A stretch of 64,000 nucleotides of DNA from Planctomycetota bacterium (GTDB taxonomy: Bacteria > Planctomycetota > Phycisphaerae > WQYP01), in assembly GCA_021810145.1 (NCBI GenBank), contig JAJZJL010000001.1:23045-87044 (forward strand), given 5' to 3'. The position numbers and the translations under genes were made by a program. The notes beneath the pieces were generated by a model that ran no database searches, had not been told where the DNA came from, and saw nothing but the letters and a program-made list of their open reading frames with translations. Of this stretch, positions 1,899 to 63,708 are shown piece by piece (within the stretch, counting starts at the first letter, position 1; each line of letters begins with the position of its first letter).

Positions 1899-3929
1899 TT
1901 AACCCGCACGCAGGGAGGCTTGGAATCGATCCGCCAGCAGCGTAAGAATCGATGCAACCTGCTGATCGACCTGTTGTGATCGCAAGGTGGATTCGGGATC
2001 ACGAAATACCAGACTCAGTGTTACGCTCTTCTTGCCTGATCCGACTTGCGCGTTGCGGAACGTGCCGACAAATTCAACCCCTTCCAGAAATGGCAGATCA
2101 ATGCCATTGATGGCTGCGGAAATATCCGCCCAGCGAACAGCGTTGGCCACCACAATCGATAAATCCCGCTGGATCGATGGAAAGCGCGGCAAGGCCGCCG
2201 CCCGGCGAACCGGGTTGAATGCGGCGATCAGTTTTTCCAGATCCAATTCCGCCGCCGCTGCTGCATGACGAAGATCATAAAATTTCATCACCTCCGGCGC
2301 AATGCTTCCCACGCAACCAATATCCGTCGGGGTCTGATTGATCAGCATCACGCAGCGGCCGGCAATGCCGGAAGAAAAGCCGGGGGCATCTTCGGGCTTG
2401 ATGACCAGACGCGCCGCGGGATTTAAGCGTTGCACCAATTCCCGCACGGTGCCCAGCACGAGTGATAATTCGTCGGCAATCAACGCAATACGGCGTTGTT
2501 CCGTCGGCACTTCAGCGCCTGCCGCTTCCTGCCAGAATACGCTGCAATATTCAAAAAGCATGGCATTGGCGGTGCCGTTATTCTGATTTAAAGCCCGTGC
2601 GCGCAGCAGCCCGGTCAATATCGATGGACGCAGGGCATTTTCCGCTTTGCGCACCAGTTCGCTTACCTGCACCGCAACGGCACCCTGCGGCAGAAATTGC
2701 CGCGCTTCGGCTTGATCCACAAAACTGTGCGTAATGGCTTGCGAAAATCCGCAGGCGCGCAGCGTACTTTCCATGGCACCAACGGCCGCAGCCCGGTTGT
2801 CCGCCGGAGGAACCCGATGCGAAATAATACTGCGCACCGGTACGCGGCCGTAGCCCCACAGCCGCACCACTTCCTCAATTAAATCAATTTCCCGGTAAAT
2901 ATCCGACCGGAAACTCGGCACCTGACAGGCAATCGCATCACCTTTGAGTTCCGGCGAAAATCCCAGCCGGCGGAGAATATCCAGCACATCATCCAGCGGC
3001 ACCTGCACGCCAAGAATAGTCTCAATGCGCCCGGGTCGCACCGAAACCGGAACAGGATCGGCTTTGATACTGCCTGCGGAAACACAGCCCGGTGCCACTT
3101 GCCCGCCCGCGACTTCCAGAATCAGTGCCGCGGCTCGGCACGATGCATATTCCGCCATGGCCGGATCAATGCCGCGTTCAAAACGGAATGAAGAATCGCT
3201 GAACAGCGTCAGCGCCCGGGCGGTGGAACGAATGGATAACGGGTTAAATCGTGCCGATTCAAGCACAATATCCACCGTGGATGACGTCACTTCGCTGGTT
3301 TGCCCCCCCATCACACCCGCAATGGCCAACGGGCCGACCGCATCACCGATGGTCAGCATGGTATCATTGAGTTTATAGCTGCGGCCATCAATGGCGGTGA
3401 TGGTTTCGCCATCGGCCGCGGTATCCACAAGAATACGCTGATCATTGATTTTCCGGGCATCAAAAGCGTGCAGCGGCTGACCGGTTTCCATAAGCACAAA
3501 ATTGGTGACATCAACCACATTGTTAACACTGCGCAAGCCGATGGATTCCAGGGCATCGCGCAACCATTGCGGAGACGGGCCGACTTTCACGTTGCGGATC
3601 ACACGGGCGGAATAATAGGAACACAAGTCCGGCACAAGAATTTTTACCGCCAGACCCGCCGGTTCACCGGATTCAACGAGCGTCACTTCCGGCATGGTGA
3701 ACGTGAGTTTGAACAAAGCGGCCAATTCCCGCGCCAGGCCGATGTGGCTGAAGCAATCCGTGCGGTTACTGGTAACTTCCACGTCCAGCACGTCCGTGCC
3801 GTTGGATTGATAAACATTCTCAACCACAAGCCCGGCGTGAATCAGAGCTTCTTGAGCGGCGGCGGCGGAGGGAACGGAATCAAGATATCGGGAAATCCAG
3901 TTCAGGGCAATTTTCATGAGCCATTCCAA
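1899..3929 (-). CDS. pheT: phenylalanine--tRNA ligase beta subunit
   Basis: 676-aa ORF opening MKIALNWISRYL with the B3/4, B5 and catalytic-like region typical of PheT. Confidence 0.85.
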   Translation of the reverse strand: MEWLMKIALNWISRYLDSVPSAAAAQEALIHAGLVVENVYQSNGTDVLDVEVTSNRTDCFSHIGLARELAALFKLTFTMPEVTLVESGEPAGLAVKILVPDLCSYYSARVIRNVKVGPSPQWLRDALESIGLRSVNNVVDVTNFVLMETGQPLHAFDARKINDQRILVDTAADGETITAIDGRSYKLNDTMLTIGDAVGPLAIAGVMGGQTSEVTSSTVDIVLESARFNPLSIRSTARALTLFSDSSFRFERGIDPAMAEYASCRAAALILEVAGGQVAPGCVSAGSIKADPVPVSVRPGRIETILGVQVPLDDVLDILRRLGFSPELKGDAIACQVPSFRSDIYREIDLIEEVVRLWGYGRVPVRSIISHRVPPADNRAAAVGAMESTLRACGFSQAITHSFVDQAEARQFLPQGAVAVQVSELVRKAENALRPSILTGLLRARALNQNNGTANAMLFEYCSVFWQEAAGAEVPTEQRRIALIADELSLVLGTVRELVQRLNPAARLVIKPEDAPGFSSGIAGRCVMLINQTPTDIGCVGSIAPEVMKFYDLRHAAAAAELDLEKLIAAFNPVRRAAALPRFPSIQRDLSIVVANAVRWADISAAINGIDLPFLEGVEFVGTFRNAQVGSGKKSVTLSLVFRDPESTLRSQQVDQQVASILTLLADRFQASLRAG

Positions 3930-3935
3930 GCATGG

Positions 3936-4463
3936 TTATGAGGACTGACGGGAAATGACCGGATAGTTTTCGCGTTCACCCAAACCGGTAACCGGATAAT
4001 CCTTGCGCAAAGGGTGCGACGTAAAGCTGTCCCAGGTGAGAATGCGGCGCAAATCCGGATGACCGGTAAACCGGATGCCGAACATATCAAAGGCTTCCCG
4101 TTCCAGCCATTCCGCACCGGCGTAAAGCGGAACCAGCGAAGGAATAATTAACTCAATTTCTTCAACAAATACGCGTACAATCAGCCGTGGCGTGCCTTTT
4201 TCCACACTGTTAAATACGTAAACCAGGCCAAAGCGGGGTTTATCCCAACCTGGGTAATTCAGATAATCCACGCAGGTGATATCCGCAAGCATGTCATAGC
4301 GCAGGTCCGGATCATCCCGCAAAAAGGTGATGACGTCGATAAATGCATCACGCGGAACGGAAATTTGCGTTTGTCCTCGAAAACTCGCGCCTTTCAGGCC
4401 CATATTGGGGAATTTTTCTTTCAGCCGGATAGCTGCCGGATGATCTATTGCCATAATTTTCAA
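3936..4463 (-). CDS. nuoC: NADH-quinone oxidoreductase subunit C (30 kDa subunit), stand-alone
   Basis: DITCVDYLNYP...RFGLVYVFNS...EAFDMFGIRFTGHPDLRRIL are NuoC signature blocks. Confidence 0.85.
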   Translation of the reverse strand: MKIMAIDHPAAIRLKEKFPNMGLKGASFRGQTQISVPRDAFIDVITFLRDDPDLRYDMLADITCVDYLNYPGWDKPRFGLVYVFNSVEKGTPRLIVRVFVEEIELIIPSLVPLYAGAEWLEREAFDMFGIRFTGHPDLRRILTWDSFTSHPLRKDYPVTGLGERENYPVISRQSS

Positions 4464-4759: not shown

Positions 4760-5590
4760 TCACATTCGGTACGCTTCCGCGGCTGTGCCGCCCATGATTC
4801 GATCCTGCTGCGCTGCGGAAAGCGGAGCGATAAAATCCTTGACCGCTTTTACCCACTGCTCATACGAGCACGCCAGAAGGCAAACCGGCCAATCGGTTCC
4901 AAACATGAGCCGTTGCGGGCCAAAGGCATGAAGAACCACATCCAGATAGGGCTTAATATCGGCAGGTGTCCAATGGGCGTGGTCCGCTTCGGTCACAACA
5001 CCGGAGAGCTTGCAGTACACATTGGCTCTCTGCGCCAGTTCGGCCATGTGCTTATCCCAGGGGGCAAGAATACGGCCCTTGATCCGCGGCTTGGCGATAT
5101 GATCGACCACAAATATCTGCTCCGGATGCCGATCCACAAACGCAAGGGTCTGGGGCAGGTGCTTTTCAAAAATCAGAATGTCGTACGCCAGGTTAAAGCG
5201 CCGCAATGTTTCAATGCCACGGTTAAAATCCGCGCGCAGCATATAGTTATCATCCGGTTCATCATGCAGCACATGGCGCAGAGCCTTGAGCTTCTTATAC
5301 GCGCTAAAGCGTTCAAGCTGGGCTTGAATATCCGGTGCGGTCAACGGCAACCAGCCGACAACGCCACGCATAAATTCATGCTGTTGCGCCAATTCCAGCA
5401 GCCATCGCGTTTCCTCAACTGATTGCCGGGCCTGCACGGTAACAACCCCATCAATGCCAGCGGCGGTAATGCGGGCATGCAGATCCGCGGGCATAAAATT
5501 TCTCCGCAGAGCCTCCATGCCGGCACCGATCCAGGCATATTCTTCCGGGCGGTATTGCCAGAAGTGGTGATGAGCATCAATTTTCAGCAT
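4760..5590 (-). CDS. amidohydrolase-2 (TIM-barrel metal-dependent hydrolase, PF04909-like)
   Basis: MLKIDAHHHFWQY N-terminus and overall TIM-barrel amidohydrolase pattern. Confidence 0.6.
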   Translation of the reverse strand: MLKIDAHHHFWQYRPEEYAWIGAGMEALRRNFMPADLHARITAAGIDGVVTVQARQSVEETRWLLELAQQHEFMRGVVGWLPLTAPDIQAQLERFSAYKKLKALRHVLHDEPDDNYMLRADFNRGIETLRRFNLAYDILIFEKHLPQTLAFVDRHPEQIFVVDHIAKPRIKGRILAPWDKHMAELAQRANVYCKLSGVVTEADHAHWTPADIKPYLDVVLHAFGPQRLMFGTDWPVCLLACSYEQWVKAVKDFIAPLSAAQQDRIMGGTAAEAYRM

Positions 5591-5616: not shown

Positions 5617-6801
5617 TCAGGATGCATGCGTGGCCGCTGGTCCCAGAAAGGGTGTAAGCGGGGAAATATCGGGATGCGGGCGGGCACCTTGTTCAATAAG
5701 ATGTTCAACGGCAATTTTCGCCAGTGTCCGGGAAATGCGGTCCCACTGCGTTTTCGGATTATTCAAAAACCGATGATAATGCTGCAGCGACGCATAAAGT
5801 GTGCGATCACGCAAAATTCCCCACGGCAAGGCCGATCCGGCATCATGCAGTAATTTGGCCACAGCAAAATCCGCATGCGGGTTTACCGGCGCGGAAGCCA
5901 GAAGCTTTTGAATTTGCGCCGGTACGCTTTTCGGCCAGCGGCGGACAAGTTCCCGGCGCACCAGCGGCTCATTCTGAATAACCAGGGCATAGAGATAAAT
6001 CGGCGTTGCGGCGGAAACATCACCCTTGATAAGCAGATGATACTGCTGATCCAGATAATCCATCATCGCTACGCTCTGGCTGGTCAGAGCGCGGGTATTG
6101 CTGATCTGTGCCATCAGCACCGGATTGCGCCGCACGGGCAGTGTTTCTTCAATCACCAGCAGACGCACGGTGCGGGCGGCGGCGGCCACCTGGGCGCAGC
6201 GCAGAAGCCGGAGTGTCAGTTGCACATCGGCCCGTTCCGCCAGGGCGGCAAAGTGTTCGCGATCCTGGGGCGGGGTTGCCCCCAGATAAGCCAGAAGCTG
6301 GCTCATGGTCCAAATCGGGCCGAGTTCGACAATATTATCCGGTGAAGCCAGCGTCATATACTGGGCCAGCGCCCGCTGGGCCACCGGTGAACCGGCACGG
6401 GAGCGGTAGGTCAGGGCGAAGGCTTTAATATCCAGCAGGCGGGCAAGACCATGATGCGGGGTTTGTCTGGCCTTATCCAATAATACATTGGCCAGCGCGA
6501 TCTTATCGGAAAGCCGATGCCGCATGGCGGAAAGAATCTGCGGGGCGTATTTCTTTTCATAACGCCGCCAGTCATTGGCGGAATAAAGCGGCGGAAAGCG
6601 CCCGGGGGCGATCGATGGCACGCTCTGGTCGAGAGTTAGATCCGGCCACAGATTTGAAACGGGAATCGCCGGAGGCAATAGCGGATTATTCGCCAGCGAA
6701 TCACCGGAAGCGGGCATTGGAGCAGCGGCCGCAGAAACGGTTCCGGCCCAGCCGAGGCAGGCCAATATCACAAAAACGCCTACGCGAAAACAATATCTCA
6801 T
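5617..6801 (-). CDS. secreted hypothetical protein with signal peptide (MRYCFRVGVFVILACLGWAGTVSAAAAP); alternative upstream start at 6831
   Basis: Long ORF with hydrophobic N-terminal signal; no recognisable catalytic motif. Confidence 0.5.
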   Translation of the reverse strand: MRYCFRVGVFVILACLGWAGTVSAAAAPMPASGDSLANNPLLPPAIPVSNLWPDLTLDQSVPSIAPGRFPPLYSANDWRRYEKKYAPQILSAMRHRLSDKIALANVLLDKARQTPHHGLARLLDIKAFALTYRSRAGSPVAQRALAQYMTLASPDNIVELGPIWTMSQLLAYLGATPPQDREHFAALAERADVQLTLRLLRCAQVAAAARTVRLLVIEETLPVRRNPVLMAQISNTRALTSQSVAMMDYLDQQYHLLIKGDVSAATPIYLYALVIQNEPLVRRELVRRWPKSVPAQIQKLLASAPVNPHADFAVAKLLHDAGSALPWGILRDRTLYASLQHYHRFLNNPKTQWDRISRTLAKIAVEHLIEQGARPHPDISPLTPFLGPAATHAS

Positions 6802-8237: not shown

Positions 8238-8960
8238 TCAACGCTTGTGCTTGGCTATCGCGTCGTTGATCTTCAGCCAGAGGCCAGGATACTGCTCCAG
8301 ATTTTTCTCCGTTACATATTGGCTCCGCGGGGCATTCACAATCGGCGCGGGTTTTCTTCCCTTGGAGCCTTTTCCCGGCAGGCTCTTTAGCTCGGGCACC
8401 AACGATTGCCATTCCTCTCTTGATCGCAAAAGCAGCACAACGCAGTTCCTTTTGATTGCCTGCTCCACCAACCAGCCCGAGTAATCTTGCGAAGCGCAAA
8501 ACTTCTGGTCTGGATGCCCAGTGGACACGGCCGAGTGATACGGATGCCATTGGATGACGCAAACCGCTCTCGCCACGGCCTCGTTGCCGTGTTTTTCAGT
8601 TAAAGTCCTCAGCCGCCGGCTCCAATATTCTCCGCCGCAGGTTTTGCTGAACCGTGGATCAAGCAAATAAAATGGATACTTCGACGGCCGGTGCAACATG
8701 CTATCCTTGCAGGCTTTGCGGAATTTGTCGCTTTTGTAGTGAAACAGGTCGGGTTTCTGGAACCCGGGATTCAGGCTCAGAAGTATGACACTTGCGGTAA
8801 GCGGGTTTCCTACATACGGCACCGGCAAAATCTCATGGCGAATCGTTGAGGATTTTGCCCCACGCCGACGTAGCTTATCATTGAGCCTTTCAACAGCGTC
8901 CCAATCCTCTTTCAGCACGTACGGTTCTCTTGGGGGCAGGCCTTTCCAGGGATTATTCAT
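8238..8960 (-). CDS. hypothetical protein with uracil-DNA-glycosylase-superfamily-like motifs (MUG/SMUG-like VILLSLNPGF and WHPYHS); start taken at MNNPWKG
   Basis: ILPVPYVGNPLTASVILLSLNPGF resembles UDG motif 1 (hhhhG[IM]NPG) and VIQWHPYHSAV resembles motif 2 (HPSP); spacing about 100 aa. Confidence 0.4.
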   Translation of the reverse strand: MNNPWKGLPPREPYVLKEDWDAVERLNDKLRRRGAKSSTIRHEILPVPYVGNPLTASVILLSLNPGFQKPDLFHYKSDKFRKACKDSMLHRPSKYPFYLLDPRFSKTCGGEYWSRRLRTLTEKHGNEAVARAVCVIQWHPYHSAVSTGHPDQKFCASQDYSGWLVEQAIKRNCVVLLLRSREEWQSLVPELKSLPGKGSKGRKPAPIVNAPRSQYVTEKNLEQYPGLWLKINDAIAKHKR

Positions 8961-55997: not shown

Positions 55998-58900
55998 TTA
56001 ATGCGGCGCGTGAACACCGCGAATCATCGTCTGCAATTCCCGATAATCAATTTTACCGGTGCCTAAAACCGGCAATTTTTCCATTCGCAAAATGCTGCGG
56101 ATATGGTGCAACCCGGAAAGGCCCGCATTCCGAATGGCCGCATTGACTTCGGAGCGATCCAGATTGTGTGTGGTTACCAGCAGGAGTTCAGGCGTGTCCG
56201 TTTCCATTGCCGCAATGACAGCCAACGCCGGGCCGGTGTCCGCCGACGATGGAAATTGTCGCTCCAGAACTTCTTCAATTGCCGGAAGAGAAATCATTTC
56301 TCCACCCAATTTAATAAAGCGCTTCAGCCGTCCAACAAAGGTCAGCACACCGTCCGCATCGGCCTTGACCAGATCGCCGGTACGATACCAGGTTTCACCG
56401 GACCATTGCACGAATGGTGAGGTGGTCTGATCACCCAGATAGCCCTTAAAAATACTCGCTCCGCGCACCAGCAGCATCCCCGGTTGGCCCGGGACGCAGC
56501 GTTGCTGTGATTCTTCGTCAATAATGGCCCAGTGAATGGAAGGCAACGGCGTACCAATGCTGCCGGGACGAATCGCGTCTTCCCTCGCCACGGACACAAA
56601 GGGAGAACATTCCGTAATTCCATAACCTTCCAGAATGGACGCCCGCGGACATGCCTTTTTGAGAGAATCGTACACACTCTGCGGACACTTTTCCGCACCC
56701 GTTACGCAAATCCGCACGGATGCCAGAGAATCCTTACCGCTGGCCCGGACAATATTGGAAAGAAATGTCGGCGTGCCCAGTAGAATCGAAGCACGATAAT
56801 TTTCAATCGTGCGCACCAATGCCGTGACCTCATTGGGATTTGGGTAATGAACCACTTTGGCACCCGATAGAATCGGCAGGAGCATCGCCGCGTTCAACCC
56901 AAAGGAATGAAATGGCGGCAACATTCCCAGAAAGCGATCATCCTGCCGAATGTGAAAACTCGCCAGGGCGTCCCGCATGTTGGTTAACAGATTTTCGTGG
57001 CTAAGCGGAACCGCCTTGGGCAGTGATTCCGATCCGCTGGTAAATAAAATCACGGCGGCTTCGCCGGATACCACCTGATCCAATGAACGCCAATACAGTC
57101 GTCCTTTGAGCGCCGCAACAACTTTCGTCCATTTTCCTATTGCGCCGGCCAGTTTTTCCAGCGGCACCATTCGATCGTTTAACGCTGAGAGATCAATACC
57201 CTGCACCTCCAGACGGCTTAAAAGGGCCTGCGCCGTCAGCACCCTGCTGACGGCGGTCATTTCCAGACCATGCTGAATGTTGCGAAGCCCCGTGGTCCAA
57301 TTCACCATCACAGGCGTTTTGCCGGAAAACAGCACCGCCAGAAATACGGTGTCCGCCGCCACCGAAGCCGGCAGCATGATGCCCACGCGTTCGTCCGGGA
57401 TTTTCTTTATTTCCTCGCGCAAGGCGAAGATCGAGGTAATCAATTCACGATAACTCCGGCTGCCCCGCTGAGTATCAGCCACCACAACCTGATCCGGATG
57501 CAATCGAGCCTGCTTCAGAAATACTTCCTGAATGGTGTTGCCTTCCGCCAATTGCACGCGTGCCGATCCAGTGTTGGCCAGCCAACGCCGTTCAGGCGGA
57601 GGTACGCGCGGATCTTTCGTTCCGGCGGCAAGCTTACCACACGCCGCCAGCATCACATCACCAACTGTTTCCAGCGATTCCACCGCCCCCACCGTTACGC
57701 CAAATTCCCTCTCCAGCCACGCAATTAAATCCATAATCGCCAGACTGTCCAATCCTAAATCCCGAGCCAGTTGTTGATCCGCGGTGATCGGGTTAATGCC
57801 CGTCAATGCACCCAGATACCGGCAGACAATTTGTTCGGTCGCCGGAGCAATGGCTTCCGAATGCGAGCGCACCATTTTGGGCGATGCGGGAATATCCCGC
57901 TCCCCGGAGCGGTCCCAAACGCTATAGGGAACATATCGTGCCGCCGGCGCTTCCTGATTATAAAAGCATTCCATATACCGGTTCATTTCCGCCCGGTCTC
58001 CGCTGCGCGGAAAATCTTTTGGCTCGGTCAACGTAATATTAACCTGTCTCCTGGGAGCAAAAAATATCCCACTGGCCAGTAAATCCGGCAAATGGGCTTT
58101 AAATGCCCGGCCCAGCCGGGGGGCCATACCCGCGCCCCATCCAAAACTGCTGCCCCATAAACCTGTTGTCCGCACCAATACCACGCGTACTTCCGGCAAC
58201 CGGGCTAAAATGCGTTTCACCGCACTGGCACTGCCCAAATCAGTCGTCTGCTCCCGCATTAATCGCCCGGCAGGATACAGCAGTACATTATCGCCCTGCC
58301 GCAAGGCCTCTACGCAACGATCAATGGCGCGCTGCACACGATCCGTCTTTCCCGCTTCGATACCGGACATTTCCGGTATTGGCAGAACGCCAACGGTGCC
58401 GGCCAATGTTCTGACCAGCGGATGGCGAATCTGATCTTCCGCGGTTAACGGGCGTACCGCAAAGCTTTCGTGCAGATGGGCCACCATAATGACCGGATCA
58501 ATCAATGCCGGATGATTCGGCAGAAAAAGAATCCCAACCCGGCCTTTTTCTTTAATCTCCGCCGCACCATTCACAGTCACACGATATCGCAGGCGCAGCA
58601 CCAACCGTGCAACGCGGCACAATAGCCGTCCCACCCATTTTGTTGACCCGCCGGAATTTCCGCCGGCCGTTCGCGCAAAGGCAATCGCGGTCATCGCCGT
58701 CGCGACAATTGTCAGCACCCCGCAGGCAAGAAACACTTGCGTTGGTATCAGCAGTTTTTGCAACGGTATATACAACATACTTCCCATGAGAATACCAGCA
58801 AACGAAGCAAACCACGCCGCGGCGATCACCCGCCCCCGAACCTCCGCTGTGGGTCGCACCTGGAACAAACTCTCCAGCGGCACCATGATAAACCCACCAG

Positions 58901-59951
58901 CGATACCTGATCCACCCAACATAAGCAATACATAAAAAAGCTTCACTCCATGCGGTAATAGCGGCGAGCCTCCGATGAAACAGAGAAATAGAGCCAACGC
59001 CCCCATGGCCGGCGCGACCGCCCGATGGCCGTTATCTTTGGAGATAAATTTTCCAGCCGCCAGACTTCCGATCACAATTCCCAGCAACTCCGCCAGCGCC
59101 AGATAACTCGTGCTCGCATCGTTCAGCCCGAACTGCACCAATCCCATCTTATTAATGACCAGAATCTGTAACGCCGCGACAAACCAGAAATACGTATTGG
59201 CCCCTATCGCTGTTATGAATAAACCATCCTGCCGCAAATGCCATAAATCTCTGATGGAGTTCATCGGGCCTCCCCATGGAAATCTGGCTGAGGGATTAGC
59301 CGCCGGGCGACTCGGTACCGCGAAGCTGATCAGCAAACCAAGCACAGACACGCCCACCAGGGATGCGGCCACCAGCACGCGCCCGAAGGCGAAATCCGCC
59401 AGGTGCCCGCGCTGCGTCAAGGCGACGCCGGCCAACACCACGCCCAGCAGAATCGCCGCGGTGGTGGCGGATTTCAATCGCGCGTTAGCCTTGATGACAT
59501 ACCAGTCCGGATACACATCCGGAATCGATCCAACCAACGCCGGACCAAATATGGTGGCCTGAAGAGCCATGAGAAAAATAACCGCCATGATCACTGACCA
59601 GTTCAATGTCAGCACGCCAAGTGCCGCGGCGGTCAGCAGCACCAATTCCAGCATTTTGGATCCGATGACCACATGCTTGCGGGAAAAGCGATCGGCCATC
59701 CAACCGGCCGGTGCGGAGAATAACAGGAAGGGTATTGTGAAAAATGTGGCAATCCAGCCCTGCAAATGCGCCAGGCCATGTGAAACAGCCAGCAGGCTTA
59801 CCGCCTGCTTCATGAAATTGTCGTTGAAGTTGCCCAGAGAATACGCAGTGGCCATGGCAATGAAACGTGATCGCCCTTTACGAATCTGCCGCCTGTCGCC
59901 ATCGGTTACAGGTAATAACCCGGTACATTCCGCATCCGCAAGTGTCATCAT
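55998..59951 (-). CDS. aas: four-domain fusion: MFS lysophospholipid transporter (LplT-like) - PlsC-type acyltransferase - embedded acyl-carrier-protein-like domain - AMP-dependent acyl-ACP synthetase (Aas-like)
   Basis: 12-TM MFS N-terminus; NHPALID acyltransferase HX4D motif; LGLDSLAIMDLIAWLEREFG phosphopantetheine-site-like; FTSGSESLPKAV AMP-binding P-loop. Confidence 0.7.
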   Translation of the reverse strand: MMTLADAECTGLLPVTDGDRRQIRKGRSRFIAMATAYSLGNFNDNFMKQAVSLLAVSHGLAHLQGWIATFFTIPFLLFSAPAGWMADRFSRKHVVIGSKMLELVLLTAAALGVLTLNWSVIMAVIFLMALQATIFGPALVGSIPDVYPDWYVIKANARLKSATTAAILLGVVLAGVALTQRGHLADFAFGRVLVAASLVGVSVLGLLISFAVPSRPAANPSARFPWGGPMNSIRDLWHLRQDGLFITAIGANTYFWFVAALQILVINKMGLVQFGLNDASTSYLALAELLGIVIGSLAAGKFISKDNGHRAVAPAMGALALFLCFIGGSPLLPHGVKLFYVLLMLGGSGIAGGFIMVPLESLFQVRPTAEVRGRVIAAAWFASFAGILMGSMLYIPLQKLLIPTQVFLACGVLTIVATAMTAIAFARTAGGNSGGSTKWVGRLLCRVARLVLRLRYRVTVNGAAEIKEKGRVGILFLPNHPALIDPVIMVAHLHESFAVRPLTAEDQIRHPLVRTLAGTVGVLPIPEMSGIEAGKTDRVQRAIDRCVEALRQGDNVLLYPAGRLMREQTTDLGSASAVKRILARLPEVRVVLVRTTGLWGSSFGWGAGMAPRLGRAFKAHLPDLLASGIFFAPRRQVNITLTEPKDFPRSGDRAEMNRYMECFYNQEAPAARYVPYSVWDRSGERDIPASPKMVRSHSEAIAPATEQIVCRYLGALTGINPITADQQLARDLGLDSLAIMDLIAWLEREFGVTVGAVESLETVGDVMLAACGKLAAGTKDPRVPPPERRWLANTGSARVQLAEGNTIQEVFLKQARLHPDQVVVADTQRGSRSYRELITSIFALREEIKKIPDERVGIMLPASVAADTVFLAVLFSGKTPVMVNWTTGLRNIQHGLEMTAVSRVLTAQALLSRLEVQGIDLSALNDRMVPLEKLAGAIGKWTKVVAALKGRLYWRSLDQVVSGEAAVILFTSGSESLPKAVPLSHENLLTNMRDALASFHIRQDDRFLGMLPPFHSFGLNAAMLLPILSGAKVVHYPNPNEVTALVRTIENYRASILLGTPTFLSNIVRASGKDSLASVRICVTGAEKCPQSVYDSLKKACPRASILEGYGITECSPFVSVAREDAIRPGSIGTPLPSIHWAIIDEESQQRCVPGQPGMLLVRGASIFKGYLGDQTTSPFVQWSGETWYRTGDLVKADADGVLTFVGRLKRFIKLGGEMISLPAIEEVLERQFPSSADTGPALAVIAAMETDTPELLLVTTHNLDRSEVNAAIRNAGLSGLHHIRSILRMEKLPVLGTGKIDYRELQTMIRGVHAPH

Positions 59952-60298: not shown

Positions 60299-60662
60299 CT
60301 AAGAGGCAATAACCTTTTGAGCACGTCCCAGTGAGCCGATATTAAACACGCTGGTGTATCCCATCTGTTTAAGGACTCTGCATGCCACGGCACTTCGCGC
60401 CCCGCTTTGACAATGCAGCAGCAAAACCCTTCTTTTGTCCGGTAAATAGCTTGGAGCACTGCTATGCAGGACATCCAGCGGGATATTCATCGCCCTTGGA
60501 AGATGATGGGCCTTGAATTCCGCCGTGCTGCGTACATCCACCAGCAAAGCCCCGCTTTGCAGATGCGCTCTGGCCTTTTGCAGGGAAATAAGCCCGATGC
60601 GCTTAAGCACCAGCAACACCACGACAACCGCGATAACCGATAAAATCAATTGCCAGTTCATG
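60299..60662 (-). CDS. membrane-anchored rhodanese-domain protein (sulfurtransferase-like); start ambiguous (60662 or 60686)
   Basis: N-terminal TM helix, then ALLVDVRSTAEFKAHHLPRAMNIPL...LHCQSGARS with the active-site Cys loop. Confidence 0.6.
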
Positions 60663-60724
60663 CCACTATTGTCATCAGGAACCATCCAATTGCAAATCCC
60701 CGCCCGCCGCGCGGAAATCGGCCG

Positions 60725-60952
60725 CCGGGGTGGAGGCCGCCACCCTGATCCCGTGACGTTGACGCACAATCCTCCGAAACCTCTGCATATCGGTTTGGCC
60801 GCAAAAAAAACAATTTTTCTCACTCTGCATTGTCAAGCCGGATTCCATGCAGCAGCTTTGTAAAATCCGGTGCGGCAATTGCCTGAGATGCCCCGCAAGG
60901 ACGCGAACAGGCAATTGCCGGAAGATGCCGATTTCCCGAATTGCGGGGATTT
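60725..60952. repeat. copy A of an approximately 220-bp imperfect direct repeat (about 90% identity with indels) flanking the AbiE islet; carries an extra 22-nt insert relative to copy B
   Basis: Direct comparison with 63195-63407: shared GGGGTGGAGGCCGCCACCCTGATCCCGTGACGTTGACGCACAATCCTCCGAAACCTCTGCATATCGGTTTGGCCGCAAAAAAA...TGTCAAGCCGGATTCCATGCAGCAGCTTTGTAAAATCCGGTGCGGCAA...GCCGGAAGATGC...AATTGCGGGGATTTGC. Confidence 0.8.
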
Positions 60953-61211
60953 GCACTTACATTCATTTTCATGCGTATCTGGATACACCATGGACAAGAA
61001 CGGCATAAACCCCGAAAATCCGCGAAATTTGGCATTCTCGAAATCACCCGATTCCGCAGCGGTTGAGTTGGAGGCAAACTGGCCTTGGTCGCCGAGTTTT
61101 GGCCCCGCACTTCCGGAGTATATGACATTGGCAGTCGTGACGATGGCCAAAGGCGGCAGAAAGTGTAAGTATTTTTGTTACTGTTTCGCTTAAAGCTTGG
61201 TCCGGGTCTGT

Positions 61212-61257
61212 GACGATAACATTTGAAATGCACGATAACATTTGCTATGTTATCGTG
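61212..61257 (+). promoter_or_regulatory. direct repeat (G/C)ACGATAACATTTG x2 plus 11-bp-arm palindrome CACGATAACAT-ttgct-ATGTTATCGTG; candidate autoregulatory operator of the AbiEi-like gene
   Basis: Read directly from the sequence; overlaps the 5' end of the longest ORF, so the true start is probably downstream (ATG at 61247 or GTG at 61280). Confidence 0.45.
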
Positions 61258-62266
61258 CGTATCTAATGATGCGGAGCCAGAAGTGCCCAAAGAACTCCAC
61301 CAACTTGAACGCTACCTGCATGACACGCTTGGTGTGGCCGTGACCACCACGCCATGGCGGGGCGGGGAACGCCTGCCGCATTTCCTCAAGGAACTGTACC
61401 GCTTTGCTGAAATCGATTTGCTGGGAATGCACGGCCTGCTCGCAGTCGATAGCAACCCCTCCGAACAATCCCCCGCCGTCGTGAGGGCGCACATGTATCT
61501 GCTGCGGACGAAGCAGGACGCGGAGGTAATCTATGTTCGCGCCCAGGTAACGGCCTACAACCGCAAGCGGCTGATTGAGCACAAAGTGCCCTTCATCGTG
61601 CCGGGCAATCAGATGTACCTGCCCATGCTGGCGATTGATTTGCGCGAACATTACCGCAGGCTCCGGTCGGAACCGCTGACGTTCAGTCCCGCGACGCAGG
61701 CCGTGGTTATTCACGCGCTGCTCCGGGGAGGCGAGCAAATCCTCATACCGATGGAGACTGCGCAACGGCTGGCATACTCGGCGATGACGATGACCCGCGC
61801 CTTTGACGAGTTGGAGGATGCCGGTCTGGGTGAAGTTGCGACCCGCGGCCGGAAGCGTTGTTTACATTTCCCTGGAAGCAAACAAGACATCTGGACCAGG
61901 GCGCAGCCGTTCCTGCGCAGCCCCGTGAACACGCGATTGTTCATCCGGCACGCCGAAGCCGGTACTGACGGCATCCGCGCCGGACTCACGGCGTTAGCCG
62001 AATACTCCATGCTTGCCCCGCCGGTATACGGTACCTACGCCTTGAGCCGTGAGGATTGGAAATCGCTGCGTCAGCGCCTTAAGCCCATTGAAGTGCCACC
62101 ACAAGATCCGGATGCCCACGAGATCGAGGTGTGGTGCTATCCACCAACCCTCTTCGCCGAGCGTGGCATCGTTGATCCGTTGTCGCTGTACCTTTCACTG
62201 AAAGCTGACACCGACGAACGCACGCAGGCGGCTTTGGAAGAAATGATGAGGAAACTCGGTTGGTAA
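61247..62266 (+). CDS. AbiEi-like transcriptional regulator/antitoxin candidate (two winged-helix-like segments), partner of the downstream nucleotidyltransferase
   Basis: FSPATQAVVIHALLRG...TMTRAFDELEDAGLGEVATRGRKRCLHF looks like a wHTH; stop overlaps the TTG start of the next gene; start codon uncertain. Confidence 0.4.
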   Translation: MLSCVSNDAEPEVPKELHQLERYLHDTLGVAVTTTPWRGGERLPHFLKELYRFAEIDLLGMHGLLAVDSNPSEQSPAVVRAHMYLLRTKQDAEVIYVRAQVTAYNRKRLIEHKVPFIVPGNQMYLPMLAIDLREHYRRLRSEPLTFSPATQAVVIHALLRGGEQILIPMETAQRLAYSAMTMTRAFDELEDAGLGEVATRGRKRCLHFPGSKQDIWTRAQPFLRSPVNTRLFIRHAEAGTDGIRAGLTALAEYSMLAPPVYGTYALSREDWKSLRQRLKPIEVPPQDPDAHEIEVWCYPPTLFAERGIVDPLSLYLSLKADTDERTQAALEEMMRKLGW

Positions 62267-63018
62267 AAGGTCTGGACATCTTCCGCGTACATTTTCAGAA
62301 TTTCGCCGACCGCTACGTGCTGATCGGCGGCACCGCGTGCGACATTGCGATGGCCAGCGTCGGGCTTCCCTTCCGGGCCACCAAAGACCTCGACATCGTG
62401 CTGTGCGCAGAAGCGCTGGACGCTGCGTTTGTCCAGGCGTTTTGGGCATTCGTGCGGGCAGGGAATTACCAGGCCCAGGAGAAATCGACCGGCCAGAAGC
62501 TGTTCTATCGCTTCCACAAACCCACCAGCGAAAATTACCCATTCATGCTGGAGTTGTTTTCGCGACAGCCGGACATGTTGCAAATAGCCGAAGGCAGCCA
62601 TCTGACCCCACTTCCGATGGAACAGGACGTGTCGAGTCTGTCGGCGATCTTGATGGATATCGACTACTACAGTTTCGTCAAAGCTGGGCGGCAGGAAGTC
62701 AACGGACTTTCGGCGGTGGGCGCAATGCACCTTGTGCCCTTGAAGGCGCGGGCCTGGCTGGACCTGACCCGGCGTCAGAGCAACGGCGAACGGATCGACA
62801 GCAAGGCGATCAAGAAGCACAAGAACGATATCTTCCGATTGTTCCAGATTCTCGATCCCGCAATTGCCCCTGCCGCCCCCGATGCCGTCAAGAAAGACCT
62901 TCGCGACTTCATTACGCGTATGCGCGGCGAGGAAGTTGACCTCAAAGCTCTGGGGTTTCGTGGTGGTACGCGCGACAGCGTGCTGGCGGAACTCGCCGCG
63001 ATGTTCCGTCTTGGCTGA
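62260..63018 (+). CDS. AbiEii/AbiGii-family (DUF1814) nucleotidyltransferase toxin candidate
   Basis: YVLIGGTACDIAMASVGLPFRATKDLDIVL has the GGTA...DxD polymerase-beta-like NTase motif in the AbiEii arrangement; TTG start; 252 aa. Confidence 0.6.
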   Translation: MVKGLDIFRVHFQNFADRYVLIGGTACDIAMASVGLPFRATKDLDIVLCAEALDAAFVQAFWAFVRAGNYQAQEKSTGQKLFYRFHKPTSENYPFMLELFSRQPDMLQIAEGSHLTPLPMEQDVSSLSAILMDIDYYSFVKAGRQEVNGLSAVGAMHLVPLKARAWLDLTRRQSNGERIDSKAIKKHKNDIFRLFQILDPAIAPAAPDAVKKDLRDFITRMRGEEVDLKALGFRGGTRDSVLAELAAMFRLG

Positions 63019-63194
63019 GACCCGGATGTTTGAATCGGTGTCAGGCGATGCGAGCCGCACACATTGGCCCGGACGAATTTCAGCGCGGTCACAACAGAGT
63101 CGCAATTCTTACTGATGCCGAGACCCACAAGCTTCCCCCGCGGCTGTCTCAAAACAACGCCCCATAGAGACTGGCTCCTGCACCCCTTAAATGA

Positions 63195-63407
63195 CGCCGG
63201 GGTGGAGGCCGCCACCCTGATCCCGTGACGTTGACGCACAATCCTCCGAAACCTCTGCATATCGGTTTGGCCGCAAAAAAACAATTTTTCTCACTCCGCA
63301 TTGTCAAGCCGGATTCCATGCAGCAGCTTTGTAAAATCCGGTGCGGCAAAGAAACGAATAGGCAATCGCCGGAAGATGCAAATACCGCCAATTGCGGGGA
63401 TTTGCTA
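63195..63407. repeat. copy B of the approximately 220-bp imperfect direct repeat, ending about 30 nt from the 3' end of tRNA-Leu
   Basis: See copy A; alignment done by eye. Confidence 0.8.
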
Positions 63408-63436
63408 TCATATTCACGTAAATACATGTCTCAAGA

Positions 63437-63518
63437 TGCTCGGGACAGGAATCGAACCTGCACTCCTTTCGGAACCGGAACCTAAATCCGGCGCGTCTGC
63501 CAATTCCGCCACCCGAGC
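63437..63518 (-). tRNA. tRNA-Leu (anticodon TAG), class II with long variable arm; CCA not encoded
   Basis: Reverse-complement of 63437-63518 gives GCTCGGGTGGCGGAATTGGCAGACGCGCCGGATTTAGGTTCCGG...GGTTCGATTCCTGTCCCGAGCA: 7-bp acceptor stem GCTCGGG/CCCGAGC, anticodon stem CCGGA/TCCGG with loop TTTAGGT, T-loop GGTTCGATTCC. Confidence 0.8.
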
Positions 63519-63708
63519 GGGCAATGAGCCTATTTTAACACAGTTGATATTTCTTGACACACCTGCAATCACAAATGCCAATTGCGGAAAGCATGCGCCG
63601 GGCGCACGTTCAGCTCATCGACAGGTTGCGACGATTATCGCCGCTTGATTTGACACCACATGCATCGGCATGGTATACCTAACACGTACCTAACTTATGG
63701 AATGTTAT

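Follow-up and report, generated by a model that had tools for sequence, protein, structure and literature searches.

The stretch of DNA analyzed here, in the following called the window, comprises 64,000 nucleotides (nt) from an uncultured planctomycete of the Phycisphaerae (assembly GCA_021810145.1, contig JAJZJL010000001.1, positions 23,045 to 87,044). Near its right end, a 2.5-kb insert lies beside a gene for tRNA-Leu, and this insert is genuine: two long direct repeats enclose a two-gene operon resembling toxin-antitoxin (TA) systems, and we call this arrangement the islet. From left to right, the site starts with a rhodanese-domain gene on the minus strand (60299..60661; 120 amino acids (aa) with an N-terminal transmembrane helix), which is native to the locus and borders the insertion on the side away from the tRNA. 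It is followed by direct repeat copy A (60723..60965, 243 nt) and a spacer of 246 nt (60966..61211) that leads to the operator/promoter of the TA operon (61212..61257, plus strand). The operon itself consists of the genes for A327, a putative antitoxin and autorepressor of 327 aa (61283..62266, plus strand; with gene calls in more than 30 contigs), and T252, a putative toxin of 252 aa of the pol-beta-type nucleotidyltransferases (NTases; 62260..63018, plus strand), whose reading frame overlaps the end of the A327 gene by 7 nt. A second spacer of 173 nt (63022..63194), common to no other context of the module, separates the T252 stop codon from direct repeat copy B (63195..63416, 222 nt). The right border is formed by the tRNA-Leu(TAG) gene on the minus strand (63437-63518; called by ARAGORN, Rfam tRNA score 55.8 bits), and its 3' end faces copy B at a distance of 20 nt rather than the ca. 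30 nt given in an initial annotation of the locus. The GC content of the islet is slightly higher than that of its surroundings (58-62% vs. 54%), and neither spacer gave a Pfam match in any frame.

Copies A and B lie in the same orientation and align with 209 matches in 243 columns, i.e., they are 86% identical if a gap of 21 columns is counted and ca. 94% identical if it is left out. This identity is unevenly distributed: the first ca. 155 nt (the core, 60723-60877 in copy A) are 98.7-99% identical, and the remaining tail reaches ca. 71-80% with a gap of 20-21 nt in copy B. The direct repeats that the initial annotation noted beside tRNA-Leu(TAG), with an overall identity of ca. 90%, are real and recur in independent assemblies. 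When compared to B copies of other strains that retain the 20-nt segment, the core of copy A reaches to ca. 60932, and across the population the homology begins at 60704.

The two repeats are copies of the native, non-coding spacer between tRNA-Leu(TAG) and the rhodanese gene. We consider this spacer to be non-coding because both the Pfam domain and the homology to an orthologous locus (L017) begin only at or after an internal Met of the rhodanese open reading frame (ORF). The Rhodanese match (E 3.4e-12) covers residues 81-162 of the extended ORF with the domain beginning after M55, and the ortholog (86% identical at the protein and 88% at the DNA level) loses DNA homology at 60673, i.e., 12 nt upstream of the ATG. 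We thus rejected an extension of the coding sequence into the repeat, and the peptide FFAAKPICRGF...PPPRR, which the initial annotation had pointed out in both minus-strand ORFs, is indeed present in both but represents non-coding read-through. No third copy of the repeat exists within the window, and an exact 27-mer of its core had no match in JGI metagenomes or IMG/VR. A dispersed repeat, a miniature inverted-repeat transposable element, or an integron attC site were rejected on these grounds and because the repeat equals the single-copy native spacer. A structured RNA or riboswitch was likewise discarded, given that Rfam models at E<=1 recognized the tRNA alone and that the spacer folds no better than shuffled sequences (z -0.70). 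Local alignments that would extend the repeat into the rhodanese or tRNA genes were no better than shuffles.

A 16-nt inverted repeat has its left arm AATTGCAAATCCCCGC at 60688..60703, outside the duplicated part, and its right arm GCGGGGATTTGC in the tails of both repeat copies (60943-60958 and 63394-63408, with 94% and 93% complementarity to the left arm). The left arm is not duplicated. Within the diverged tails, perfect conservation is confined to the right arm, which suggests a candidate protein-binding or pairing site. As a side observation, this inverted repeat encloses the whole spacer unit, and motifs centred on CAATTG (CCAATTGCGG..., GGCAATTGCC) recur near the tRNA and in the repeats (60686-60703, 60876-60885, 60913-60922, 60940-60958, 63388-63408, 63578-63590). 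The duplicated palindrome of the initial annotation is found in the window, but its second GGCAATTGCC is specific to this strain and reads GGCAAGCGCC in others. The tail of copy B also contains a promoter-like site that faces the rhodanese gene (minus strand, 63434-63407).

The operator of the TA operon contains ACGATAACA three times, twice in direct orientation (starting at 61213 and 61232) and once inverted (61248-61256), and it overlaps a sigma-70-like promoter with the -35 element TTGAAA (61223) and the -10 element TATGTT (61246-61251). The initial annotation had already placed a repeat-containing operator at 61212-61257, and we find it in the same place in homologous loci. Distant homologs share the layout of two direct plus one inverted copies with a different half-site (TTCTAACAT / ATGTTAGAA; L153 3975-4027, L158 3977-4046, L143 ca. 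500-560), a pattern that suggests co-variation of the operator and the winged helix predicted in A327. A homolog of A327 is encoded directly upstream of the T252 homolog at each of the 85 loci that have upstream DNA. In the most distant ones, the T proteins are still 41-47% identical and the A proteins 25-30%, i.e., the partner diverges faster.

The module is widespread, with more than 7500 close matches to T252 at 70-82% identity across Planctomycetota and Acidobacteriota, 3349 representatives of 50%-identity clusters retrieved by a T252 family profile, and 24 IMG/VR contigs that carry it. Between contexts, DNA conservation extends exactly from the start of the operator at 61212 to the stop codon. 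These contexts are diverse, e.g., IS66 and PIN genes, a RepA_C/ParA replicon near DUF1156/SNF2, or an MmeI-type restriction-modification system with a PLD-helicase and a true AbiEi_4 gene that adjoins the module as a separate gene (L105). The operon thus has the general hallmarks of TA systems, namely paired genes, a conserved operator, a more slowly evolving toxin, and many unrelated contexts.

The initial annotation had called the pair AbiEi/AbiEii-like, and this label holds partly for T252 and not for A327. T252 lies on the fringe of AbiEii: it matches PF08843 with 17.7 bits, below the cut-off of 22.5, and only over residues 12-78, and among 43 diverse relatives 19 match this family at E<0.01 (best 2.3e-5). 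A precomputed PF08843 match exists for about half of the close homologs. AbiEii proteins are characterized by motifs I/II of the form hG[GS]-x15-DhD with an Arg four residues ahead of the first Asp, by a conserved Lys in a hydrophobic helix as motif III (KLxAaxxR in the COG4849 branch), and by +DxxD as motif IV (PMC3985639). In T252, pol-beta NTase motifs I and II are present as I22-G23-G24 and R39-x3-D43-x-D45, invariant in the 43 homologs, with a spacing of 18 instead of 15. Its K162-A-R-A165-W166 (K-x-x-A-aromatic) resembles the COG4849-type motif III, and H187-K-N-D190 replaces the absent +DxxD; both are invariant or nearly so, with H187, N189, and D190 strictly invariant. Neither a sequence search with T252, the T252 family profile, nor Foldseek with an AlphaFold2 model (pLDDT 77) found any solved MenT or AbiEii structure, and the structural matches are generic pol-beta NTases at E >= 0.046. 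The module was not recognized by PADLOC (2.0) or NCBIfam models.

For A327, the AlphaFold2 model (pLDDT 68.5; searched with Foldseek) begins with an alpha/beta domain that is modelled with confidence, has a MarR/ArsR-like winged helix in its centre (ca. residues 120-200), and ends in a poorly modelled C-terminal part. Its match to MarR_2 is below threshold, 16 of 39 A327 relatives match this family, and a PDB profile search returned MarR/ArsR repressors at E 1e-3, i.e., only generic winged helices. No AbiEi family appears among the Pfam matches of A327 or its 39 relatives, which are limited to MarR-type helix-turn-helix domains. An assignment as AbiEi (COG5340) was therefore rejected, also because the winged helix is central and not N-terminal.

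In outline, the pair thus appears to resemble the AbiE type IV TA and abortive-infection system and the mycobacterial MenAT systems with their DUF1814 NTase toxins (PMC3985639, PMC7450476, PMC11375011) without being a canonical AbiEi/AbiEii member. It shares with them the bicistronic organization of a winged-helix regulator gene followed by an NTase gene with overlapping frames, promoter repeats that suggest autorepression, and an occurrence on plasmids, viral contigs, and defense islands. Unlike in AbiE/MenAT, the presumed regulator carries an additional N-terminal alpha/beta domain. A327 and T252 may belong to the COG4861-COG4849 branch (PMC3985639, PMC7450476, bioRxiv 10.64898/2026.01.19.700257), in which case A327 may resemble a COG4861-type partner; the agreement is limited to the size pattern, with a partner larger than the toxin as in the COG4861-COG4849 pair and the MenA2-MenT2 layout, and to the resemblance in motif III.

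Dozens of contigs, which come from ENA samples (ERZ272369xx-375xx) and TPA metagenome-assembled genomes (MAGs; GCA_0274287xx), encode the exact T252 protein, share the gene order of the window, and are 99.5-99.98% identical to it. Outside this population, the nearest GTDB species as judged from an adjoining Aas-like protein are Planctomycetota/Phycisphaerae MAGs (79-84% identity). The nearest relative among GTDB species representatives (L017) has kept the Aas-like and rhodanese genes with another gene upstream of the latter and no tRNA, and it offers no empty site. Such a site, composed of the rhodanese gene, a single repeat, and tRNA-Leu and proposed as a check by the initial annotation, is nevertheless present in the same species on a 47.9-kb contig (ERZ27237206 k141_54142, hereafter L099) that was found via a small ORF overlapping the rhodanese gene. 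There, the locus is 2451 nt shorter and reads rhodanese - single repeat - tRNA-Leu - imuB. In the alignment, the order is rhodanese, the left flank of copy A, one core, the 20-nt segment, a B-type tail, and tRNA-Leu. The flanks of L099 are identical to those of filled contigs L096/L194 over 5.5 kb leftward and 2.2 kb rightward. Its single repeat has three private single-nucleotide polymorphisms (SNPs) in the core, and its tail variants are shared with the B copy of a divergent strain (L190).

The contigs are MEGAHIT k141 metagenome assemblies, and the identical core of the repeat (155-210 nt) exceeds k=141, so that the repeats or the empty-site contig could be artefacts of a repeat longer than the k-mer. 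We find this explanation hardly credible. About a dozen samples and MAGs yielded more than 30 contig views with the filled structure, and its recurrence in independent assemblies shows that it is not an assembly artefact. L099 should not be a path through a collapsed repeat either: a single 141-mer suffices to connect its private changes with the A-specific flank and, likewise, with the B-type tail, so that the overlapping k-mers must stem from one molecule. The empty allele is hence real and separate, having been moved by homologous recombination into or out of an L096-like background. It is rare (1 of 24 contigs read), and no contig read shows two repeat copies without cargo. As a side observation, SNPs between L099 and L096 occur only in tight clusters (4 in 41 nt at 5499-5539, 9 in 60 nt at 8676-8735); clusters of this kind are typical of short recombination patches and thus indicate frequent homologous exchange in the population. 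Copies A and B further share polymorphisms across strains (TT/GC, A7/A8, T/C), which points to gene conversion between them. At least five structural alleles segregate at the locus. The suggestion of the initial annotation that the islet is a discrete insertion is borne out by this insertion/deletion polymorphism.

Some of these alleles illuminate how the right junction came about. In L188/L190, copy B is separated from the 173-nt spacer by 132 additional nt. A foreign segment accounts for 113 of them, starts with TGTGC, and encodes MKRIGSHIKNKRFSEEQMLSILRDADTGD, and the remaining 19 nt (CCGCCGCGCGGAAATCGGC) push the homology to copy A back to 60704. The foreign stub would be the putative left end of an insertion sequence (IS) plus 29 codons of an IS3-family orfA: those matches of its peptide that carry an annotation all lie in features for IS3 family or other transposases / mobile-element proteins, and the two that we inspected lie exactly at the transposase N-terminus with RFSEEQ..LR.A..G conserved. 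A full-length IS behind the stub had no match in a word-based protein search. Removing the stretch between two CGCC tetranucleotides from the L188 allele yields the window allele. Copy B hence did not originally begin at 63195, and this left edge was created by a 132-nt deletion between the CGCC microhomologies. A further deletion concerns the 20-nt segment. Since the empty allele carries this segment, as do the B copies of L007/L192 and L190, it has been lost from most B copies. The initial annotation had read it with inverted polarity as a 22-nt insert in copy A. The edges of the repeat are therefore not att-like crossover edges: a secondary deletion made one of them, and at the other the similarity declines little by little. 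As already stated by the initial annotation, there is no integrase, and on called genes within 10 kb on either side of the islet, Pfam searches revealed neither integrase nor transposase families.

Related copies of the module in other contexts inform about the origin of the insert. In L107, the module is 99.15% identical to that of the window at the DNA level, with unrelated DNA from the first base past the stop codon. This points to a very recent exchange of the module, most simply by gene conversion between resident copies. L224, which has its downstream context in common with L107, is 87% identical to window positions 61113-63019 and forms an islet of 2.4 kb with 93-nt imperfect direct repeats at both ends. 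Its right repeat runs into GGTTCGAATCCGGTTGGGGGTA (the T-loop and acceptor 3' end of a tRNA) at the contig end, and its left repeat contains a decayed version of the tRNA 3' end, GTTCTACCCCGGTTGGGGTA. Another group, L225-L228 (GCA_021801965.1, a Planctomycetota MAG, and samples of the ENA series of the window), is 95% identical to L224 and 87% identical to window positions 61050-63019, and past the T gene it continues with a gene for a 118-aa protein followed by SSB and DUF932 genes. Genes of the latter two kinds are common on conjugative or integrative elements.

The end of the element is common to L224 and L225 as far as the pseudo-tRNA 3' end, where their sequences part in the manner of a site-specific junction. 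The equivalent position in the window lies just inside the tail of copy A (ca. 60986-61000), and the part of the spacer from 61050 (possibly ca. 61000) to 61211 is homologous (87%) to this element end. The best reading is that the att-side spacer and the TA operon constitute the extremity of a family of tRNA-side elements, of which the islets in the window and in L224 would be independently reduced versions.

Two further observations concern these and similar copies. In L225, 166 nt (3027-3192) interrupt the 3' end of the T gene, resulting in a 251-aa protein with a different C-terminus (P0045) and leaving the original last ca. 130 nt downstream. In L147 (2039-2353), 87 nt separate the end of the module from a convergent tRNA-Ser(GCT) gene, whose 3' end faces it and which is followed by tRNA-Ser(TGA); no flanking repeat was detectable in the 297 nt of upstream DNA on this contig.

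With these copies at hand, one can ask whether the spacer might have been duplicated in situ, either in tandem or as a very long target-site duplication, with the TA module landing between the copies independently so that the bracket is coincidental. This scenario would fit the strictly local, two-copy nature of the repeat, and the ca. 25% divergence of the tails could mean old age. The boundaries of the module at its operator and stop codon and its near-identity in the context of L107 further indicate that it moves or converts independently of the repeats. However, the empty allele lacks the second copy and the insert together, and the contigs read include no cargo-free intermediate with two copies. 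Furthermore, the spacer upstream of the operator is common to L224/L225, so more than the module arrived together, and copy B directly adjoins foreign DNA, namely the 173-nt spacer and the IS-like stub. We therefore regard a duplication in situ as very improbable.

Instead, we favor the view, held with moderate confidence, that an ancestor of this population acquired a larger element at the 3' side of tRNA-Leu(TAG) and that the islet is what remains of the distal end of this element. An element of the L224/L225 family would have integrated there and brought along a homeologous copy of the tRNA-downstream spacer, either captured from an earlier host by aberrant excision or as part of a long attP arm. 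Integration would have left this spacer on both sides and thus formed long imperfect direct repeats of at least 262 nt. Subsequently, the insertion of an IS3-family element and successive deletions would have stripped the interior with its genes for integration and transfer, with the att-side spacer, the TA operon, and a short unrelated tail as survivors. The TA pair may have been retained because it is self-stabilizing and probably defensive: A327 would repress its own promoter via the triple ACGATAACA operator, and T252, as a DUF1814-like NTase, would arrest growth when left unchecked. The islet would now be devoid of mobility of its own and would be gained, lost, and reshuffled by RecA-type homologous recombination in its flanks or between the repeats, which would explain the existence of a rare empty allele as well as the gene conversion seen between copies. 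The proposal of the initial annotation that the locus is an addiction remnant after the loss of mobility genes gains support from the SSB/DUF932 continuation in L225-type contigs, the IS3-like stub, and the 132-nt deletion. Overall, this annotation is partly supported: it had recognized a real feature and its general nature, and we corrected the family label, the polarity of the indel, and the meaning of the repeat edges.

In several respects, the islet resembles degraded tRNA-associated islands, i.e., in its position at the 3' side of a tRNA gene, the direct repeats made of target DNA, the presence/absence polymorphism within a species, the slightly raised GC content, the IS debris and nested deletions, the TA operon as sole cargo, and a related copy that continues into SSB/DUF932 genes. 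Other respects set it apart and weigh against the reading that we favor. An att site is usually a short, exact match within the 3' end of the tRNA gene. The repeats of the islet measure about 240-260 nt and greatly exceed such identities, nearly all of their length is located downstream of the tRNA, and their identity is mosaic (99%, then 75%). In the window, the repeat ends 20 nt before the tRNA gene and does not significantly take in its 3' end, and the likeness of 60986-61000 to the tRNA-Leu 3' end (GGACAAGAA / GGACAGGAA) is weak and not above shuffles. No integrase was seen in any related contig, with L225-type contigs ending after 7 kb, so that the integrase-mediated founding event and the status of the parent as an integrative element are inferred from the geometry at the tRNA end and the SSB/DUF932 neighbors. 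Moreover, the contig of L224 ends within the tRNA, which ARAGORN did not call. The stub has no Pfam match, and its assignment to IS3 draws on positional consistency and on tblastn matches in plasmids that are individually weak (E >= 0.3). The B-type tail of the empty allele would fit a product of excision or homologous recombination as well as a site that had never been occupied. Finally, MenT2, a DUF1814 toxin of M. tuberculosis encoded downstream of a COG4861-type gene, was non-toxic in assays (PMC7450476), a precedent that bears on the toxicity predicted for T252.

The length of the repeats has a possible model in temperate phages. Aberrant excision of the lambda gal/bio type would join an element end to captured att-adjacent DNA of the old host, and upon Campbell re-integration this DNA would make up a long imperfect direct repeat together with the copy already present in the new host. 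Unlike in this specialized-transduction-type excision, no circular form, excisionase, integrase, or donor locus was observed for the islet, and the parallel would thus be one of analogy.

The most serious competitor, which we nevertheless consider unlikely, does without any integrase at any time. Circular or linear DNA of a related strain that contained the TA operon and a homeologous spacer would have entered by a single RecA-dependent Campbell-type crossover or by homology-facilitated illegitimate recombination. The homologous stretch would have been duplicated in this way, and the unit could loop out again via these repeats. A near-identical block of 155-210 nt beside a tail of 75% identity is just what a homeologous crossover would leave behind, and homologous exchange at the locus is frequent in the population. 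Besides, imperfect repeats of local DNA also bracket the modules in L187, L186, L143, and L179. In L187, a distant module lies between 223-nt repeats (3728-3950 / 5935-6157, 82.5% identical) that comprise the upstream region and the first ca. 60 codons of a recQ-like helicase gene. As a side observation on this locus, the left copy is truncated, the resident recQ-like gene appears frameshifted, and a VapBC-like pair is encoded just upstream.

More generally, flanking repeats of at least 40 nt were found at 6 of 35 real modules compared to none of 53 control segments. However, four of these six cases represent one gut element with repeated terminator units. In L150 (489-552, 3153-3216, 3937-4003), a 66-nt unit ending in a terminator-like hairpin and T-run follows successive operons including the TA operon, and the same cassette-array look is seen in L151, L152, L159, L167, L169, and L172 from human-gut metagenomes. 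We considered these 66-nt repeats as target duplications and rejected this interpretation since they are repeated terminator-like units of one element. An origin without integrase also leaves unexplained why the islets of the window and of L224 adjoin the 3' sides of different tRNAs with the same element end facing a core that resembles a tRNA 3' end. Neither does it explain the SSB/DUF932 continuation in L225 or account for the source of the first homeologous copy.

Several observations concern the neighboring genes. Public gene calls on more than 30 contigs omit the rhodanese gene and call an antisense 59-aa ORF (60464-60643, plus strand) instead, and the rhodanese is thus probably missing from MAG annotations. 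On the other side, an imuB-like gene for a Y-family polymerase (PF00817; 63709-64000, plus strand) starts 190 nt beyond tRNA-Leu and continues in L001 (11450-16340), where it is followed by a dnaE2-type polymerase gene; no imuA-like gene was called upstream of it. To the left of the rhodanese gene, 55998-59951 (minus strand) encodes a 1317-aa Aas-like fusion of MFS transporter, acyltransferase, PP-binding, and AMP-binding domains. This fusion protein is 41-84% identical across Planctomycetota, Acidobacteriota, and other phyla, with many relatives matching only from ca. residue 440.

As a probable case of ordinary genomic-island decay, the locus needs no new biology. The sole potentially novel aspect is the recurrence of long repeats of local DNA around the module. 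It invites the speculation, in our eyes rather improbable, that the TA operon together with ca. 200 nt of upstream spacer is a minimal hitchhiker without integrase that carries the tRNA-downstream DNA of its last host and enters and exits by RecA-dependent Campbell-type recombination. If this were true, the TA function would stabilize every new insertion, and the long local repeats at L187, L186, L143, L179, and L224 would be the signature of a previously undescribed mode of mobility for defense and TA cassettes. Beyond this locus, A327 and T252 represent a large family (thousands of clusters) of operons with DUF1814-like NTases and a non-AbiEi partner that are missed by PADLOC 2.0. For the uncultured Phycisphaerae themselves, the islet would be a natural example of a mobile element that erodes to a TA pair, with intermediate stages still segregating in one population.

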